Below, piece after piece: positions 3,592 through 63,236 of a stretch of 64,000 nucleotides of DNA (position 1 is the first letter of the stretch; each line of letters opens with the position of its first letter). The notes under the pieces are model-generated. The model saw only the letters and a list, made by a program, of their open reading frames with translations. It did not search any database and had not been told where the DNA came from. The translations under genes were made by a program, and so were the position numbers. This DNA is from Candidatus Magasanikbacteria bacterium RIFOXYD2_FULL_41_14 (GTDB taxonomy: Bacteria; Patescibacteriota; Patescibacteriia; Magasanikbacterales; GWA2-37-8): assembly GCA_001784475.1 (NCBI GenBank), contig MFRE01000022.1, positions 44,234 to 108,233 on the forward strand. The letters run 5' to 3'.

Positions 3592-5751
3592 GTGATAAAA
3601 TATCGGTATAATTTTATGAGCGTTAAATTTAACTTTTTTCAGAATATTAAATCAATCTTAAAATTTTTTTTTGGAGTTGCCATTTTTGCGGTAATTCTTG
3701 TTTGGTTTTATTCTGATGCCAAACCGATTTGGCAAAATCCACGCATACCACCGCAAATTCAAACCGCGCAGGCGGTTACTTGGTATAATACCAGTTGGTT
3801 ATATCGAAAAACAATTACGATTGATTACACCAAGGTTTCTACCACTTTGGCAAATTTTCCAGTAATGGTGAGTACGACTGATGCTAATTTAGTAGCTTAT
3901 GCGTCTTCTACTGGCGCTGATATTTTGTTTACTGATTCAAGTGGTACCAAATTAAATCACGAAATTGAAAGTTATACCAGCGCTACCGGTAAGTTAATCA
4001 CTTGGGTGAAGGTGACGAGCTTGTCTAATTCGGCAAATACTATTCTTTATATGTATTATGGCAATACGGGGGCAGCTGATCAGCAAAATATTACGGGGAC
4101 ATGGGATTCAAATTATGTGGGCGTATGGCACATGAAAGAAAATCCGTCCGGTTCGGCGCCCCAGATGAAAGATAGCACGACTAATGCCAATCATGGCACT
4201 ACTCAAGGTTCAATGCCTTCCGGATCCTTGGTAAACGCGCAGATTGGCGATGGTTTGGATTTTAATGGTTCCAGTTATTATGTCTCTCTTCCGGTTACAT
4301 CCTCGCTTAATATCACCGGGGCGATTACTGTTGAGACCTGGGTTTACGCGGATGCTCTTTCGTCGGCTAGAAGGTTTGTGTCTAAAAACAACACCGTAAC
4401 CAAATCTTGGGAACTTAATTTTGAATCAGCTGTTGGTGGTTTAACTACCATGAGAGTTTTTGATGGCGGAACAATAAAACGTACGCAAGAAGCGGCAGCA
4501 ATGACGGTCGGATCTTGGTTCCATTATGTTGGTGTATTTGATCCCAGCACTGCCGTGATAATTTATAAAAACGGCTCACAAAGCGGAGCTCTAACTTCCG
4601 GAATTCCGGCAGCGCAGAACGACAATCCCAATATCGCGGTATTATTTGCTCGCAGTCCCTATGCTGGCTGTTTAAATTGTTATTTAGATGGCAAAATGGA
4701 TGAAGTGCGCGTTTCCAATGTGGCCCGCTCCGCCGGTTGGATTTTAACCGAATATAACAATCAATATTCACCGTCGACCTTTTATAGTATAGAAAGTACA
4801 GCACAAACCCCACCATTTTATGATCAAATTTATTATAAATTTTTTAATAATACTGATTCTACTGATGTTGGTTTAAAACTGGCGAACCAAAATTTACCAG
4901 CTACTTTATCGTCCGCTGGCGACCCGTTCCGTTTGCGCTTGGGTTTGCATGTAACCGGCAGTCAAATAGACGCTAGTGGCCAAAGTTTTAAATTACAGTT
5001 TGCGGAAAAATCAGGGGATTGTGACGGCACTTTTTCCGGTGAAAGTTATGCTGATGTAACCGGAGCGACCGTAATTGCGTATTATGATAATGCCACCCCT
5101 AATGATGGTGATAGTTTAACTATAAACGCGGGTGACCCAAATATTGGTAATAATGTGATTGAACAGACATATGAAGAGGCCAATAATTTTACCAATTCCG
5201 TGGGCGCAATCGCAATCGGCGAGGAAGGTTTGTGGGATTTTTCTTTATACGATAATGGCGCTACCGCCAATACGTCATATTGTTTGCGGTTAATTAAATC
5301 AGATGGTAATAATATTGATAGTTATACCGAAATACCGGAAATAATCACTGCGTCTGGTGTGTCGCCGATAGTGTCGGTGTCGGTTCAAGATGGCATTATT
5401 AATTATGGGTATTTGCCCGTTGGTTCCAGTACTACCACGATTGCCGTTGCAGATTCTCAAACGGTTACTAACGATGGTAATGTGGATATAGATTTGGGTA
5501 TCAAAGGTTCAACGTCCACGCCGGGCAATTGGACGCTGGGTTCGCAGGCAGGGGCAGACCAATATGTCCATGAATATTCGGTTGACGTCGGTGACACTTG
5601 GGTGCCACTTACTGCCGATTATCAACTTTTGGTTCCGGGAGTGCCGCCAGATGCCGGCGGTGTTATTGATTTTAGAATTCAAGTGCCAAGTTCAACTTCG
5701 GATTATAGCACGCAAAATGTTGATATTACTATTTTGGCGGTTCAGTCATAG
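3592..5751 (+). CDS. large secreted/membrane-anchored protein: N-terminal TM/signal, DUF2341-like region, concanavalin-A/LamG-like lectin region, C-terminal ~130-aa beta-rich module
   Basis: 719 aa. WYNTSWLYRKTITIDYTKVSTTLANFPVMV is typical of DUF2341. The middle part matches LamG/ConA-like glucanase-fold proteins. The start may instead be the second Met at 3616. Confidence 0.55.
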   Translation: MIKYRYNFMSVKFNFFQNIKSILKFFFGVAIFAVILVWFYSDAKPIWQNPRIPPQIQTAQAVTWYNTSWLYRKTITIDYTKVSTTLANFPVMVSTTDANLVAYASSTGADILFTDSSGTKLNHEIESYTSATGKLITWVKVTSLSNSANTILYMYYGNTGAADQQNITGTWDSNYVGVWHMKENPSGSAPQMKDSTTNANHGTTQGSMPSGSLVNAQIGDGLDFNGSSYYVSLPVTSSLNITGAITVETWVYADALSSARRFVSKNNTVTKSWELNFESAVGGLTTMRVFDGGTIKRTQEAAAMTVGSWFHYVGVFDPSTAVIIYKNGSQSGALTSGIPAAQNDNPNIAVLFARSPYAGCLNCYLDGKMDEVRVSNVARSAGWILTEYNNQYSPSTFYSIESTAQTPPFYDQIYYKFFNNTDSTDVGLKLANQNLPATLSSAGDPFRLRLGLHVTGSQIDASGQSFKLQFAEKSGDCDGTFSGESYADVTGATVIAYYDNATPNDGDSLTINAGDPNIGNNVIEQTYEEANNFTNSVGAIAIGEEGLWDFSLYDNGATANTSYCLRLIKSDGNNIDSYTEIPEIITASGVSPIVSVSVQDGIINYGYLPVGSSTTTIAVADSQTVTNDGNVDIDLGIKGSTSTPGNWTLGSQAGADQYVHEYSVDVGDTWVPLTADYQLLVPGVPPDAGGVIDFRIQVPSSTSDYSTQNVDITILAVQS

Positions 5752-5789
5752 TGGTGCTGTGGATAAGTACGCCCGCGCGCGGGGGGGGG

Positions 5790-5818
5790 TTGGAGATAAA
5801 AAAGTTATGTGGTATAAT
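5790..5818 (+). promoter_or_regulatory. sigma70-like promoter (TTGGAG-17-TGgTATAAT) preceded by a G9 tract
   Basis: -35 at 5790-5795, extended -10 TGGTATAAT at 5810-5818, G9 homopolymer at 5781-5789. Confidence 0.5.
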
Positions 5819-5848
5819 ATAGTTGTTAATTATTTAAATTTATTTTTT

Positions 5849-6343
5849 ATGAAAAATAAAAAATTGGATTTAGTTATAGGCGTGTTATTTGTGGTAGCGC
5901 TTGCGTTTGGGGTGTCGGCGCAAGGGGCTGATACCGGCACGGTATCAGCGACAGTAACAGTTCAAAATGTTTCATTAACTGTTTCCGATGGCACTGTTGC
6001 TTATGGCACACAATCAGCCGGTGCTATGACGAGCACGTTACTTACCGGAGATATCCAGACAGTTACTAACAATGGTAATATAACAGAAAATTTTAACATC
6101 AAAGGCCAAGATTCCGCCAACTGGACACTGGCTTCATCTAGTAGCACCGACCAGTATACCCACCAATTTTCCACTACGACTGGTTCCTCTTGGACTTCTC
6201 TAACTACCAGCTATGCCACTTTGGACACAAGCAAAGCGGCTGCCGCCACTTCTACTTTTGATTTGCGCATTTATGTGCCTTCCGCTTCCACCAACTATAC
6301 TTCTCAGAGTGTTGATGTTACCGTACAGGCGGTAGCCAGTTAA
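5849..6343 (+). CDS. small secreted protein (signal peptide), paralogous to the C-terminal module of the 3592-5751 protein
   Basis: ATG at 5849 gives MKNKKLDLVIGVLFVVALAFGVSAQG (signal peptide). The mature part aligns with the last ~130 aa of the upstream protein (TVTNDGN...NWTLxS...DQY.H....DVT.QAV). The listed ORF 5564..6343 is an upstream extension through the intergenic region. Confidence 0.55.
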   Translation: MKNKKLDLVIGVLFVVALAFGVSAQGADTGTVSATVTVQNVSLTVSDGTVAYGTQSAGAMTSTLLTGDIQTVTNNGNITENFNIKGQDSANWTLASSSSTDQYTHQFSTTTGSSWTSLTTSYATLDTSKAAAATSTFDLRIYVPSASTNYTSQSVDVTVQAVAS

Positions 6344-8087: not shown

Positions 8088-8104
8088 GGGATTAAATAAT
8101 TAAC

Positions 8105-8177
8105 TGTCATTCCCGCGAAAGCGGGAATCCAGACGTTGGTCGTCGGCCATTGGATCCCCGCTTTCGCGGGGATGACA
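8105..8177. repeat. MITE-like inverted-repeat element (GTCATTCCCGCGAAAGCGGGAATCC...GGATCCCCGCTTTCGCGGGGATGAC)
   Basis: Terminal inverted repeats, two internal hairpins and a GGATCC core. Same family as the copies listed below. Confidence 0.6.
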
Positions 8178-8237
8178 AAAATATTCCCGCCAGAGCGGGT
8201 CGGCCTATGGCGGAAAAATGACAAATAAAATATCAAA

Positions 8238-18562: not shown

Positions 18563-18587
18563 TGTCATCCCGACGAAGGTCGGGATC
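18563..18587. repeat. half-copy of the GTCATCCCGA-family element (GTCATCCCGACGAAGGTCGGGATC)
   Basis: Read directly. Confidence 0.45.
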
Positions 18588-18867: not shown

Positions 18868-18890
18868 AATTACACTTATCGGCAGTAGGC

Positions 18891-18914
18891 ACGTCCGTAC
18901 ACGTGTACGGACAT
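18891..18914. repeat. palindromic repeat copy 1 (ACGTCCGTACACGTGTACGGACAT)
   Basis: One of three copies of the 20-28 bp palindrome with a CACGTG core. Confidence 0.6.
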
Positions 18915-18936
18915 AAATAAGTATTTAAATCATGAT

Positions 18937-27449: not shown

Positions 27450-27551
27450 TGTCATTCCGAGTGAAGCGAAGCGCAACCGAGGAATCCCTTGAAGCTGATA
27501 ATCACACAGATGGCTGCGTTAAGGGATCCCTCGGCTACGCTCGGGATGACA
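27450..27551. repeat. MITE-like element (GTCATTCCGAG...AAGGGATCCCTCGGCTACGCTCGGGATGAC)
   Basis: Right arm is identical over ~36 bp to the copy at 30212-30247. Confidence 0.6.
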
Positions 27552-29705: not shown

Positions 29706-29791
29706 TGTCATTGCGAGGAGTCATTACGACGAAGCAATCTCATGAAATATGGGATTGCCACGTCCCGACTAAGTCGGGACTCGCAATGACA
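29706..29791. repeat. MITE-like element (GTCATTGCGAG...CTCGCAATGAC with internal GTCCCGACTAAGTCGGGAC hairpin)
   Basis: Read directly. Confidence 0.6.
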
Positions 29792-29814: not shown

Positions 29815-30123
29815 TTATTTTTTATCACCGTGATCTTTGTGATAGCCAATCATAATTTCAATAAGTTCAATAAAACTTGCAGCGGCCAGTCCGGCCATAG
29901 CAATAGTGAACATAATGTTGCCAATGTAAACAGCATAAACTAATAGACAACCAGCTCCGATAAAAAATACCGCATCTTGGCGTTTTTCCGCTTCCAAAAA
30001 AATAGCGTAGGTGATTAGAATCGCTCCGACCATCGCCACTACTTCTACGATGACTTTAAATAATGGCCAGGGGAGGGTGGGAAGGAAATTTGCGAGAGGC
30101 ATAATTTTAAAATTAAAAATCAA
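29815..30123 (-). CDS. small membrane protein (3 TM), unknown function
   Basis: 102 aa, hydrophobic. Confidence 0.4.
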   Translation of the reverse strand: MIFNFKIMPLANFLPTLPWPLFKVIVEVVAMVGAILITYAIFLEAEKRQDAVFFIGAGCLLVYAVYIGNIMFTIAMAGLAAASFIELIEIMIGYHKDHGDKK

Positions 30124-30155: not shown

Positions 30156-30247
30156 TGTCATGCTGAGCGTAGTCGAAGTATCCCTTAAATTTGACAGCAA
30201 ATTAAATGTTGGCGTTAAGGGATCCCTCGGCTACGCTCGGGATGACA
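30156..30247. repeat. MITE-like element (GTCATGCTGAGCGTAGTCGAAGTATCCCTT...AAGGGATCCCTCGGCTACGCTCGGGATGAC)
   Basis: Imperfect ~30-bp TIRs. The overlapping plus ORF 30160..30618 is spurious and antisense to trxB. Confidence 0.6.
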
Positions 30248-31260: not shown

Positions 31261-31938
31261 TTAGTATTCAATCTTTTTTATTAAATTATTGTATGCTATT
31301 TTCATATCAGGTGCTTTCGTTAATGCACTCCCCACGTAAAATCGTTCCACGCCCCAAGATTTGATTTGTTGAATAGTATTTTCATTAACCGAGCCGTCCA
31401 CTGCCAGTGTCGGGCGCTTTTTCGGCAATTGTTTTATTTTTTCACCCACGTCCGGCCGAAACGAATTTCCTTGTTTGCCCGGCACAACTGTTAAAAACAA
31501 TAGCATATCTATGTCCGTACACGTGTACGGACATAATTTTTTAATATCTGTGTCCGGACTAATCGCAATACCGACCGCGTATCCCATTTTTTTAATTTTA
31601 GCGATTACTGCTTGCGGGTCATCCGCTCCTTCAATATGAAAAATTACCCGAAAAACATTTTTTACTGATTTCCATTTATCTAATTCCGCCAGTGGGTGTT
31701 TTACCATTAAGTGTAGCTCCCATTTGAGCGGGCTGTTTAACAAATTTATTTCTGTTCGTTCAGAAAAGGAGACATTGTCCACCAATTCACCATCCATGAC
31801 ATCAATTTGTACGTAATCAGAAAATTCTTCGGCTTGTTTGGCCTGCTTGGTAAATTCGTTAAAATCATTGGTCAGAATTGTTAAAATGATTTTACTTTTT
31901 GTTTTCAAATTCAGTAATTTTTTTAATACGTCTAGCAT
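31261..31938 (-). CDS. rpe: ribulose-phosphate 3-epimerase
   Basis: IDVMDGELVDNVSF, HLMV, VVPGKQGNSF motifs. Contains palindrome copy 2 in-frame. Overlaps rpiB by 47 nt. Confidence 0.8.
   Translation of the reverse strand: MLDVLKKLLNLKTKSKIILTILTNDFNEFTKQAKQAEEFSDYVQIDVMDGELVDNVSFSERTEINLLNSPLKWELHLMVKHPLAELDKWKSVKNVFRVIFHIEGADDPQAVIAKIKKMGYAVGIAISPDTDIKKLCPYTCTDIDMLLFLTVVPGKQGNSFRPDVGEKIKQLPKKRPTLAVDGSVNENTIQQIKSWGVERFYVGSALTKAPDMKIAYNNLIKKIEY
31510..31535. repeat. palindromic repeat copy 2 (TATGTCCGTACACGTGTACGGACATA) inside rpe coding sequence
   Basis: Perfect 26-bp palindrome, encodes LCPYTCTDI in rpe. Confidence 0.6.
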
Positions 31939-35986: not shown

Positions 35987-36054
35987 TGTCATGCTGAACT
36001 TGTTTCAGCATCCCTTAAATGGCCTGGGATCCTGAAGCAAGTTCAGGATGACAA
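35987..36054. repeat. MITE-like element (GTCATGCTGAACTTGTTTCAGCATCCCTT...GGGATCCTGAAGCAAGTTCAGGATGAC)
   Basis: Read directly. Lies between the leader terminator and the ileS start. Confidence 0.6.
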
Positions 36055-43318: not shown

Positions 43319-43419
43319 TTTGTTAATTATAGAATTATATCTATAATTAAATTGATAACTGTTTTAGTTATTCAGTAGAAGTTTAGTAAGTAATAAAAAA
43401 ATCGACCGCAAGGCCGATT

Positions 43420-43447
43420 TTTATGTCCGTACACGTGTACGGACATA
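43420..43447. repeat. palindromic repeat copy 3 (TTATGTCCGTACACGTGTACGGACATAA), perfect 28-bp palindrome
   Basis: Read directly. Sits next to a bidirectional terminator hairpin between the convergent ruvA and pyrF. Confidence 0.6.
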
Positions 43448-43490
43448 AGTATATATTGGTATATATCATGGTATATACCAAATTTTATCT

Positions 43491-52347: not shown

Positions 52348-54006
52348 TTATTTCATCTTCTCTCGCAACAATTTCTCCGCCACCACCGGATCGGCGTTGC
52401 CTTCGGTCGTTTTCATCACCATTCCTTTTAAAAATTGCAACAGTGGTTCTTTGCCCGCTTTAAATTTGGACACTTGCTCGGGATAACTTTTAATTACTTC
52501 ATCCACTACCGCGCCTAGTGCACCCTCATCACTCATTTGGCCATAACCCTTTTCTTCCATAATATGCGTTGGGTCAATGTCGGTATTGGCGTCTAGCATC
52601 TCATTTAAAATTTTGGTGGCGTTAGTGGAATTAACGCGGTTGGTATAAAATAACGCCAATAATTCCGAAAAATTTTCCGGTGATAATTTTAAAATTCGGA
52701 TATCAATTTTTCGTTCGGCCATGGCACCCATCAATTTGGAGGTGAGCCAGTTACCGGTTAATTTTGCTAATGCTGATTTTTTATTATCTAAAATCTCCGA
52801 AGTAGTTTTTTTATTTTCGGGCTTGCCCGGCGTAGTCCCACTTGGTGGGACGGAGACGGGTAGAGAATGTAGCCACTCCACCAAATCAGAATATACATCT
52901 TCGGCATAAGCGGCCCAATACGGGTCGGTCGCGAGAATTGCGGAATCAGCATAAGAAAAGCCGTATTCGGTGTGGAAACGGGCGCGTTTTTGGGTAGGCA
53001 ATTCTGGTAGCACAATATCGCCGGCAATTTTTTGCGGATTAAATGGTGGAATATCTGGTTCGGGGAAATAACGATAATCAGCCGAAGTTTCTTTAATGCG
53101 TTGCATCACGGTTTCGCCTTTGTCATCGCTCCAACCGCGGGTTTGCTGAGGCCACGTTTCATCTTTTTCAATTATTTCGGTTTGGCGTTTAATTTCAAAA
53201 TCAATTGCTTTTTCCACCGCGCGGAAAGAATTAATATTTTTAACTTCTACTTTATTATTTAATTTATAATCACCAATTGGTTTAATCACACCATCTTCAT
53301 CAACAAATTTTCCGGTTTCCTGTACCGAAATATTGGCCTCACAACGCATTTGGCCTTTTTCCATGTCAGCGTTACTCACGCCTAGATAGCGAAAAATGGT
53401 TTGTAGTTCTTGGCAATATGCTTTGGCTTCAATTCCACTTTGCACATCTGGGTCAGAGACAATTTCCACGAGTGGCACGCCGGCGCGGTTAAAATCGACA
53501 AAACTGAAGGTTTTGTCGCCCCGGACTTGTTCCGGGGACCCCTGAATCCCCGCTTGCACGGGGATGACACCCACGCCTGCTGGTGCGTGTGTCAATTTGG
53601 CCGTATCTTCTTCCATGTGTACACGCGTGATGCCAATTATGGCACTGTCGCGATGGTTTTTGGTGCCAATTAGATTTAATTCAATTTTTCCGTGTTCTCC
53701 CACTGGTTCATCAAATTGGGAAATTTGGTATGCCTTGGGTAAATCAGGATAAAAATAGTGCTTGCGATCAAACTTGCTTTCAGTCGCGATTTTGCACCCT
53801 AAAGCGGTAGCGATTTTTACAATATCACAAATGGCACCGGCGTTTGGGACTGGTAATGTGCCAGGGTGTGCTAAGCAGACCGGACAGATATTGGTGTTAG
53901 GGGAGCCATGGTCCGGATCATTTTTGCAAGCACAAAACATTTTGGACTTGGTTTTGAGTTCAACATGGATTTCCATGCCGATAATTGCAGTATATTTTGT
54001 TTTCAT
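52348..54006 (-). CDS. gatB: Asp-tRNA(Asn)/Glu-tRNA(Gln) amidotransferase subunit B, carrying a repeat-derived in-frame insertion
   Basis: MKTKYTAIIGMEIHVELKT..., FDRKHYFYPDLPKAYQISQ, DFNRAGVPLVEIVSDPD, YRYFPEPD, C-terminal YqeY-like domain. About 22 extra residues lie between KLTH and SFVDFNR. Confidence 0.9.
   Translation of the reverse strand: MKTKYTAIIGMEIHVELKTKSKMFCACKNDPDHGSPNTNICPVCLAHPGTLPVPNAGAICDIVKIATALGCKIATESKFDRKHYFYPDLPKAYQISQFDEPVGEHGKIELNLIGTKNHRDSAIIGITRVHMEEDTAKLTHAPAGVGVIPVQAGIQGSPEQVRGDKTFSFVDFNRAGVPLVEIVSDPDVQSGIEAKAYCQELQTIFRYLGVSNADMEKGQMRCEANISVQETGKFVDEDGVIKPIGDYKLNNKVEVKNINSFRAVEKAIDFEIKRQTEIIEKDETWPQQTRGWSDDKGETVMQRIKETSADYRYFPEPDIPPFNPQKIAGDIVLPELPTQKRARFHTEYGFSYADSAILATDPYWAAYAEDVYSDLVEWLHSLPVSVPPSGTTPGKPENKKTTSEILDNKKSALAKLTGNWLTSKLMGAMAERKIDIRILKLSPENFSELLALFYTNRVNSTNATKILNEMLDANTDIDPTHIMEEKGYGQMSDEGALGAVVDEVIKSYPEQVSKFKAGKEPLLQFLKGMVMKTTEGNADPVVAEKLLREKMK
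53517..53571. repeat. GTCATCCCCG-family element copy embedded in-frame in gatB
   Basis: CCCCGGACTTGTTCCGGGG plus GAATCCCCGCTTGCACGGGGATGAC. Encodes ...GVGVIPVQAGIQGSPEQV... on the coding strand. Confidence 0.55.
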
Positions 54007-56137: not shown

Positions 56138-56254
56138 GTTGTCATCCCGACCGTAGTGGAGGGATCCCTTAACGCCATCATTTTACGTATTAACTAATTT
56201 AAGGGATTCTTCCCCGACGCAAGGTCGGGATAAACTGTTACACTCAGAATGACA
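56138..56254. repeat. MITE-like element (GTCATCCCGACCGTAGTGGAGGGATCCCTT...AAGGGATTCTTCCCCGACGCAAGGTCGGGAT...AATGACA), itself flanked by a 22-bp inverted repeat
   Basis: Flanking IR: TCCAATTTCCAATCAATGTCAAA (56101-23) and TTTGACATTGATTGGAAATTGGA (56287-309). Confidence 0.55.
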
Positions 56255-57218: not shown

Positions 57219-57235
57219 ATATTTATTTTGTTTAC

Positions 57236-57313
57236 TGTCATTTCGGACTAGATCCGAAATCCAGTCGTTGTTTTTATTGACCGCTGGATCCCCGATCAAG
57301 TCGGGGATGACAG
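57236..57313. repeat. MITE-like element (GTCATTTCGGACTAGATCCGAAATCCAG...CTGGATCCCCGATCAAGTCGGGGATGAC)
   Basis: Lies between the dut stop and the thyA start. Confidence 0.6.
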
Positions 57314-63207: not shown

Positions 63208-63236
63208 TGTCATCCCCGTGACAACGGGGATCCAGT
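63208..63236. repeat. half-copy of the GTCATCCCCG-family element (GTCATCCCCGTGACAACGGGGATCCAG)
   Basis: Read directly. Followed by an ATGTCAAGTTTGACAT hairpin plus T6 terminator at 63276-63298. Confidence 0.5.

Follow-up and report, generated by a model that had tools for sequence, protein, structure and literature searches.

How can a palindromic repeat lie inside the coding sequence of a core gene and leave that gene intact? This question is raised by gatB, the gene for the tRNA-amidotransferase subunit GatB, on a 64,000-nucleotide (nt) stretch of contig MFRE01000022.1 from Candidatus Magasanikbacteria bacterium RIFOXYD2_FULL_41_14; in the following, the whole stretch is called the window. 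The gene, which is presumably essential in its host, carries an in-frame double hairpin of a repeat family that is dispersed over the window. We consider it very probable that a non-autonomous selfish palindromic repeat has inserted into gatB, and that the insert survives there because its length is a multiple of three, because it has no stop codon in frame and because the protein loop at this place tolerates extra residues.

The minus-strand open reading frame (ORF) of gatB reads ...EEDTAKLTHAPAGVGVIPVQAGIQGSPEQVRGDKTFSFVDFNRAGVP... through the insert with neither a stop nor a frameshift. At about 53517-53571 the coding strand runs CAC GCA CCA GCA GGC GTG GGT GTC ATC CCC GTG CAA GCG GGG ATT CAG GGG TCC CCG GAA CAA GTC CGG GGC GAC AAA ACC TTC AGT TTT GTC GAT TTT AAC CGC, which is conceptually translated as H-APAGVGVIPVQAGIQGSPEQVRGDKTFS-FVDFNR; the predicted peptide across the insert is ...THAPAGVGVIPVQAGIQ... 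In a protein alignment with the 120 closest orthologs, residues ~144-165 (22 aa, between KLTH and FVDFNR) fill columns that nearly all of these orthologs lack. The usual GatB loop has 6 aa, for example GTNGVT in a relative with 82-83% identity. The empty site is found in DNA as well. The gatB gene of the relative L085 (83% identical) reads CAC GGC ACC AAT GGC GTT ACC CTC GTT GAT, and compared with it the window gatB has 66 extra nt, or 22 codons, in the DNA alignment. The closest relative, L001, has yet another loop with a different, shorter GC-rich hairpin insert (HHPSPLLGQE). As the loops of these three lineages all differ, the window insert is younger than their split.

The extra DNA is built of two hairpins. 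Judged from the sequence, the family alignment and the pattern matches, the 56-nt core of the inserted palindromic element occupies 53514-53569 on the minus strand; its coding strand is TGTCATCCCCGTGCAAGCGGGGATTCAGGGGTCCCCGGAACAAGTCCGGGGCGACA, translated as (G)VIPVQAGIQGSPEQVRGD(K). The span which holds the 66 extra nt is 53506-53577 (minus strand), with the DNA alignment to L085 and L001 placing them at ~53506-53571 and the protein alignment at 53512-53577. One arm, GTCATCCCCGTGCAAGCGGGGATTCAG at 53542-53568 (minus strand), is well preserved and forms a hairpin like those of the Neisseria Transformation Sequence (NTS) and Ssn-related motifs (SRM), with the stem ATCCCCG/CGGGGAT at 53546-53552/53559-53565. 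The second arm, GTCGCCCCGGACTTGTTCCGGGGACCC at 53515-53541 (plus strand), is degenerate and resembles the left arm of another copy at 57237; its stem CCCCGGA/TCCGGGG lies at 53519-53525/53531-53537. Both 7-bp stems are 100% complementary. In addition, the end of the element pairs with the adjoining gatB codons (F-V-D) in a 9-nt perfect inverted repeat, CGACAAAAC / GTTTTGTCG, at 53496-53518.

Hairpins of the same make are scattered over the window. We scanned it for GTCAT-headed hairpins and aligned the results, and this yielded at least nine further family copies or solo arms, all of them intergenic, so that the gatB copy alone is intragenic. The sequence GTCATCCCCG occurs four times in the window as against 0.05 expected occurrences, and the 27-nt pattern GTCATYCCCGN6CGGGRATYCAG four times as against none expected; the well-preserved gatB arm matches the latter with 0 mismatches. 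The elements of the family are 56-100 nt long, end in TGTCAT...ATGACA, and as full copies fold at -38 to -54 kcal/mol. [quoted passage not shown] One could still regard the extra residues as an ordinary lineage-specific loop extension, born of slippage or a local duplication, whose likeness to the repeats is a coincidence, since the length of this GatB loop varies across bacteria. The mismatch-free 27-nt match, the family-type ends TGTCAT...GACA on the gatB element and the relatives' undoubted family copies in this loop (see below) effectively refute this view, and we give it next to no probability.

By all accounts the gene that received the insert is otherwise a normal gatB. The coding sequence (52348-54006 of the ORF list, minus strand) is intact and encodes 552 aa, while most close orthologs have 516 aa; it aligns with the orthologs end to end. 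The top database match is a Candidatus Magasanikbacteria GatB with 88% identity, and all listed close homologs, at 98-100% query coverage, contain PF02934 (GatB_N) and PF02637 (GatB_Yqey). A PDB sequence search retrieved 3h0l_B (E = 1e-103) and also 3al0_B and 2df4_B. The AlphaFold 2 (AF2) model has a mean predicted local distance difference test score (pLDDT) of 84.6 and a predicted template modelling score of 0.82, and its fold matches the GatB chains 3ip4_B (E = 3.5e-46), 3h0l_B and 3al0_B. Residues H14, E132, E133, D134, N173, R174, E181 and others are invariant across 74 aligned orthologs, the query included. On this evidence, equivalents of His12, Glu125 and Glu151 of S. aureus GatB, which we take to be catalytic or metal-binding residues, are conserved.

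In the model, GatB residues 145-164 have a pLDDT below 50 and are predicted to be disordered. They are flanked by the strands 137-140 (the end of the HxEED strand) and 168-171 (the start of the VDFNR strand), so that, according to the prediction, the insert sits as a disordered loop on the tip of a beta-hairpin of the cradle domain. Aligned with Aquifex GatB, the insert comes to lie between H135 and G137. The published elements by which GatB recognizes tRNA are found elsewhere in the sequence; they are the tail domain and a 3-10 turn that comprises residues 183-186 in S. aureus. As a background for the loop length we used a profile scan of genome contigs with the GatB alignment, in which the matches listed came mostly from distant phyla. 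The loop spans 4-38 aa in 150 diverse GatB representatives; in a Brevibacillus locus it reads KLTHSEYGGGSLVDYNR. Such a wide natural range across bacteria fits a permissive site, and because the loop length is already so variable the enzyme most likely still works. The initial annotation of this DNA had claimed that about 22 extra residues follow KLTH, that they stem from a double-hairpin copy of the window's repeat family, that the reading frame is kept in an otherwise intact gatB and that a surface loop results. The first three claims are borne out by the alignments, the stems, the exact 22 codons and the conserved residues, and the fourth agrees with the structure prediction. Nor do relatives without the repeat share the long loop; theirs is much shorter.

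Inserts in this loop are not confined to the window. They are present in 17 of the 120 closest GatB orthologs and belong to at least eight unrelated sequence types. The type of the window gatB is VIPVQAGIQ...; the orthologs P0018 and P0023 have CHPRENGE...DSRFRGNDN, which is the window's repeat family in another frame; five orthologs have GHPERSEGS...DSSASPQND of the GTCATCCTGAGCG sub-family, another five a PPARGG type, and several types are singletons. In a rough neighbor-joining tree without bootstrap, the nearest neighbors of the insert-bearing proteins mostly have no insert. Six of the insert-bearing genes were also compared as DNA and have strong palindromes there; the fold energies of inserts in relatives are -44 (L165), -34 (L166), -41 (L167), -69 (L168), -35 (L010) and -27 kcal/mol (L012). 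L010 and L012, like L138, are more distant lineages of the candidate phyla radiation (CPR) in which the loop is occupied by palindromic inserts of other kinds. On sequence grounds, the loop inserts of the relatives are copies of dispersed repeats, and direct evidence comes from L165. Its gatB insert has an intergenic counterpart at a distance of 2.4 kb with ~88% identity, the identity is bounded sharply at CTGTCAT...ATGACAA, and the differences within the stems are compensatory. An exact 12-mer search for insert copies in the relatives' own flanks had hardly any result, as the divergence between the copies is too great for it, whereas fuzzy and TIR-pattern searches succeeded. In L171 a non-palindromic insert of 20 aa lies at the same site. 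The motif at its right junction may be common with the L165 element, and the insert could be a decayed copy. Every insert at this loop is in frame and free of stops, in the 17 orthologs as well as in all long-loop cases among ~170 loci (among the matches listed). We note that one contig (L005), titled 'uncultured Gammaproteobacteria', contains three paired-arm elements and a gene for a GatB with 64% identity to that of the window; the taxonomic label of this contig is probably wrong.

In-frame inserts are also found at other places. The window gatB itself has a second one at 52813-52851 (minus strand; residues 386-398, VPPSGTTPGKPEN), which is common with L001 and contains two small hairpins, one with a GGGC/GCCC stem of 4 bp and one that reads GTCCCAC-CAA-GTGGGAC on the coding strand. 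This insert is older. Here, too, the AF2 model predicts a disordered linker (residues 386-400, pLDDT below 50), and L085 carries at this second site a different repeat-derived insert with CHSERSEES. The second insert is part of a tract of ~180 nt (window ~52660-52840; alignment columns ~1170-1350) that is 98-100% identical to L001, compared with 83% over the whole genes, which suggests recent recombination in gatB. Outside gatB, an in-frame element-type peptide occurs in ileS of L003 (15625-19224), a non-homologous extra segment at the same ileS site in L167 (17514-20492), and an in-frame repeat-derived segment in pyrC, the dihydroorotase gene, of L001 (13349-14575); two other ORFs of relatives contain in-frame copies as well. 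Apart from this, the L003 IleRS has a ~200-aa insertion of a His_Phos_1 domain that is missing in L166 and L167.

Is the tolerance of the loop enough to explain why it is struck so often? It is conceivable that this gatB position is targeted at the DNA level, instead of or besides a filter by selection, and that inserts are also lost precisely, gain and loss together giving the patchy distribution. The inserts which we call class B speak in favor of such targeting. L003, L166 and L167 are on separate branches with neighbors that have no insert, yet their inserts share the frame, the orientation and an identical left junction (CACGCAGTG followed by GGTCAT or AGTCAT), while the spacers differ. 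Likewise, the insert of P0018 is found with an identical spacer in P0023, and P0055, which is closer to P0018, has the canonical 6-aa loop, suggesting precise loss or recombination. The common ileS site of the extra segments in L003 and L167 points in the same direction. Finally, the absence of target-site duplications (see below) would be expected of hairpin-specific 'peel and paste' enzymes; transposition of this kind by IS200/IS605 leaves no target-site duplication. The NTS-ssnA-NTS arrangement has been likened to IS200/IS605 elements (PMC11893778). Against this, the window insert shares neither the loop position nor the frame of the relatives' class A and class B inserts, unrelated repeat families, probably with different enzymes, use the same loop, the loop is length-variable in bacteria in general, and the tree on which the argument from branches relies is rough. 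We regard targeting with precise loss, in place of or on top of permissiveness, as possible but rather unlikely.

Which kind of repeat is it? The NTS consensus, CGTCATTCCCGCGMAVGCGGGAATCYRG, describes a single-stranded DNA hairpin targeted by SsnA, a nuclease of the GIY-YIG type (PMC11893778, Nat Commun 2025). The left arm of one window element, TGTCATTCCCGCGAAAGCGGGAATCCAG at 8105-8132, differs from this consensus by 1 mismatch. [quoted passage not shown] Our regular-expression rendering of the published SRM motif has three matches in the window (8105, 57284 and 63208) as against ~0.2 in mononucleotide shuffles. It misses the well-preserved gatB arm; on inspection by hand, we could trace this to a single C-to-T change that follows the stem. 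With the NTS, dRS3 and SRM repeats (PMC11893778) the window family shares the oriented GTCAT head, the GC-rich stem, the trailing ATCYRG, the many copies and their nearly always intergenic location. In contrast to NTS, the arms in the window are mostly joined as inverted pairs into palindromes of 56-100 nt, one such pair is genic and in frame, and no ssnA-like gene, which would encode a single-domain GIY-YIG protein (cd10448) and often be flanked by the repeats, was found in the 64 kb by motif scans. The tie of the window's repeats to Ssn is thus one of motif alone. As a separate observation, a Saccharibacteria metagenome-assembled genome (MAG) encodes at L024:2150-2584 a 96-aa single-domain GIY-YIG protein (PF01541, E = 1e-15) which adjoins an SRM-like hairpin, TCATTGCGAGGCCGCCTGAAGCGGGCGAAGCAATC; this pair hints that pairs of an Ssn-type nuclease and a repeat exist in CPR genomes.

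As NTS hairpins do have a function in Neisseria, the gatB insert might have been put to use by its host. Its RNA hairpins might tune the stability or translation of the gatB mRNA, an Ssn site might limit recombination, or the new loop might contact a partner. The arms have stayed near the family consensus in spite of their coding location, and the tract shared with L001 suggests that recombination has recently taken place in this gene. However, the orthologs get along with unrelated inserts or with none, the peptide is predicted to be disordered, and one arm of the gatB copy is already decaying; L171 has a non-palindromic insert, possibly a decayed copy, at the very site, and motif scans revealed no Ssn gene in the window. 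We consider co-option quite improbable; most likely we are dealing with a selfish or a neutral element.

We have to mention a number of points that weigh against the insertion of a selfish repeat as proposed here. The junctions of the gatB insert are ambiguous within ~6 nt (53506-53577), its left end is degenerate (GTCGCC vs GTCATC), and its arms fold as separate hairpins instead of pairing with each other as in the intergenic copies. The fold energy is unexceptional for the composition, with z = -1.3 (RNA) and -2.2 (DNA); these scores are weak because runs of G and C fold well even after shuffling. Inspection found no flanking direct repeats, that is, no target-site duplication, beside the intergenic copies or the one in gatB. 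No GIY-YIG ORF was found in the window by motif scans, and in its ORF list a crude HUH/Y motif flag, used without homology search, turned up neither a transposase or HUH/Y1 candidate nor a related autonomous insertion sequence (IS) with the same ends. With target-site duplications and candidate enzymes absent from the window, mobility is deduced solely from the distribution of the copies. A pure selection filter does not predict the common left junction of the class B inserts. Translation of the insert and activity of the enzyme, moreover, we infer from the open frame and the variable loop. Last, the exact protein with the insert is absent among the database matches, the best of which is 88% identical, and no second assembly backs the insert.

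This last point, together with the fact that repeats are a classic source of misassembly, leads to the question whether an error of assembly or sequencing has produced the insert, such as a repeat-induced chimera in a MAG. The reading frame of gatB is contiguous on both flanks of an insert of exactly 22 codons, and many assemblies that different projects produced independently have analogous in-frame inserts in this loop. An artefact is therefore in our eyes very improbable. It remains to be added that no Rfam family matches the gatB insert; just two chance-level matches were obtained elsewhere in gatB.

Taking these arguments together, we favor the selfish repeat and suggest that its history in gatB proceeds as follows. 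An inverted pair of GTCAT-headed, GC-rich hairpins, of a kind related to NTS and Ssn motifs and of MITE- or REPIN-like build, would have inserted into the gatB DNA, possibly mobilized by a GIY-YIG enzyme of the Ssn type or by another hairpin-specific nuclease. As the net gain is 66 nt with no stop in frame, the ribosome would read straight through and produce GatB with 22 additional residues. The added residues would form the disordered loop at the hairpin tip of the cradle domain between the HxEED and DFNR strands. Copies that land elsewhere in genes would be purged by selection, and such a filter would explain the intergenic location of the window's other copies. The GatB loop would in this way gather inserts of many repeat families in related genomes, and these would decay over time into an ordinary-looking loop.

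Protein-coding palindromic repeats as a phenomenon are already known. The Rickettsia palindromic elements (RPE) are, as far as the account in PMC10969869 goes (citing Ogata 2000 Science and 2002 Genome Res), in-frame palindromic repeats in many housekeeping genes and regarded as selfish. Within the limits of this account, the gatB element works like an RPE in that a short non-coding palindrome lies in frame in a housekeeping gene of a small genome, is read through and is compatible with the fold of the host protein; we liken the two by behavior and not by the RPE consensus sequence. RPE are, by the same account, longer (~100-150 bp as against 56-66 nt) and belong to Rickettsia, whereas the host here, judged from the GatB relatives, is a Magasanikbacteria-like member of the CPR. 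A further difference is that one loop of one protein is struck repeatedly by several unrelated families in different lineages. MITEs and REPINs, which are doublets of repetitive extragenic palindromes mobilized by RAYT transposases, resemble the window family in the small size, the terminal inverted repeats, the hairpin arms, the dispersed copies and the lack of an own ORF, and the MITEs ERIC, QMITE1 and those of Anabaena also make in-frame fusions (PMC10969869). They differ from it in that we detected no target-site duplication and saw no cognate IS, RAYT or other transposase in the 64 kb.

In yeast mitochondrial genes, mobile GC-rich palindromic inserts termed byps are reportedly bypassed in translation. 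They resemble the GatB inserts in that they lie within coding genes of an AT-richer genome; the ribosome, however, passes over byps, and these do not have to preserve the frame, while the GatB loop inserts are all in frame without stops, and plain read-through is thus simpler than bypass. We reject translational bypass, be it of the byp or of the T4 gene 60 type, for the window insert, which neither interrupts the frame nor carries a stop after a take-off codon but has exactly 22 codons and no stop. In the light of the Rickettsia precedent, the 17 orthologs hit and the ileS and pyrC copies in relatives, the initial annotation went too far in calling the case unusual. The non-palindromic insert of L171, if it is a decayed copy, supports the annotation's view that loops can arise from such elements. 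Our incomplete literature collection contained nothing relevant on in-frame palindromic repeats of CPR or Patescibacteria. What appears to be new here is the GatB insertion hot spot for multiple families and the link, at the level of the motif, between CPR repeats and NTS/Ssn hairpins.

The other members of the family in the window are distributed over its whole length. Full intergenic copies are located at 8105-8177, where the left arm agrees with the published NTS consensus at 27 of 28 positions and the sequence over 8101-8180 folds at -54.4 kcal/mol, and at 57235-57312 between ORFs of 290 and 140 aa, which by synteny with L001 are thyA and dut. A compact intergenic copy of 67 nt (35987-36053; -41.6 kcal/mol) is upstream of a 967-aa ORF, and in the intergenic copy at 56140-56232, known from the family alignment, the right arm is degenerate. 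Intergenic copies of sub-families are found at 27450-27551 and 30156-30247 (GTCATCCCGAGCG, both by repeat search and family alignment) and at 29706-29791 (GTCATTGCGAG). Solo arms, both intergenic and on the plus strand, lie at 18563-18586 (by hairpin scan and family alignment) and at 63208-63235 (by the SRM expression and the family pattern). Two of the elements, 29706-29791 and 30156-30247, bracket a 95-aa ORF (29815-30102, minus strand) in a repeat-gene-repeat arrangement. We considered a nuclease as its product and rejected it, as the protein is membrane-protein-like and not GIY-YIG; its only Pfam match, to the membrane-protein family Imp-YgjV, is weak and below the curated cutoff. Another perfect palindrome, ATGTCCGTACACGTGTACGGACAT, has three intergenic copies (18885-18923, 31505-31543 and 43417-43455), which may represent terminators or else a further repeat family. 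The N-terminal region of an ORF for a predicted secreted protein (5564-6343) contains a perfect hairpin of 9 bp, CTGATACCG-TGC-CGGTATCAG, at 5928-5952. As for the neighborhood of gatB, the order thymidylate kinase, UPF0259-like membrane protein, gatB is kept in close relatives, and a gatC-gatA-x-gatB arrangement on one contig is found in relatives. In a genome that has the partners gatA and gatC but neither GlnRS nor AsnRS, the enzyme would be essential.

The gatB case ties the repeat of this window to the recently described NTS/Ssn hairpin family. It also has a practical side, as such inserts inflate protein lengths and can mislead the annotation and alignment of MAG proteins. With at least eight unrelated inserts among 120 orthologs, and with empty, fresh and possibly decayed sites side by side, GatB is an unusually clean natural experiment, and its loop could be used to study the birth of loops, the insertion-tolerant sites of enzymes and the targeting of DNA sites by hairpin repeats. 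More tentatively, and with considerable doubt, one may ask whether Ssn-related repeats of the CPR enter and leave core genes at scale, the GatB loop and the IleRS and PyrC sites being true hot spots with precise gain and loss. If this were true, reduced genomes would regularly obtain new surface loops for their proteins from hairpin repeats, and GatB would offer a natural time series that leads from the fresh palindrome to the decayed loop.

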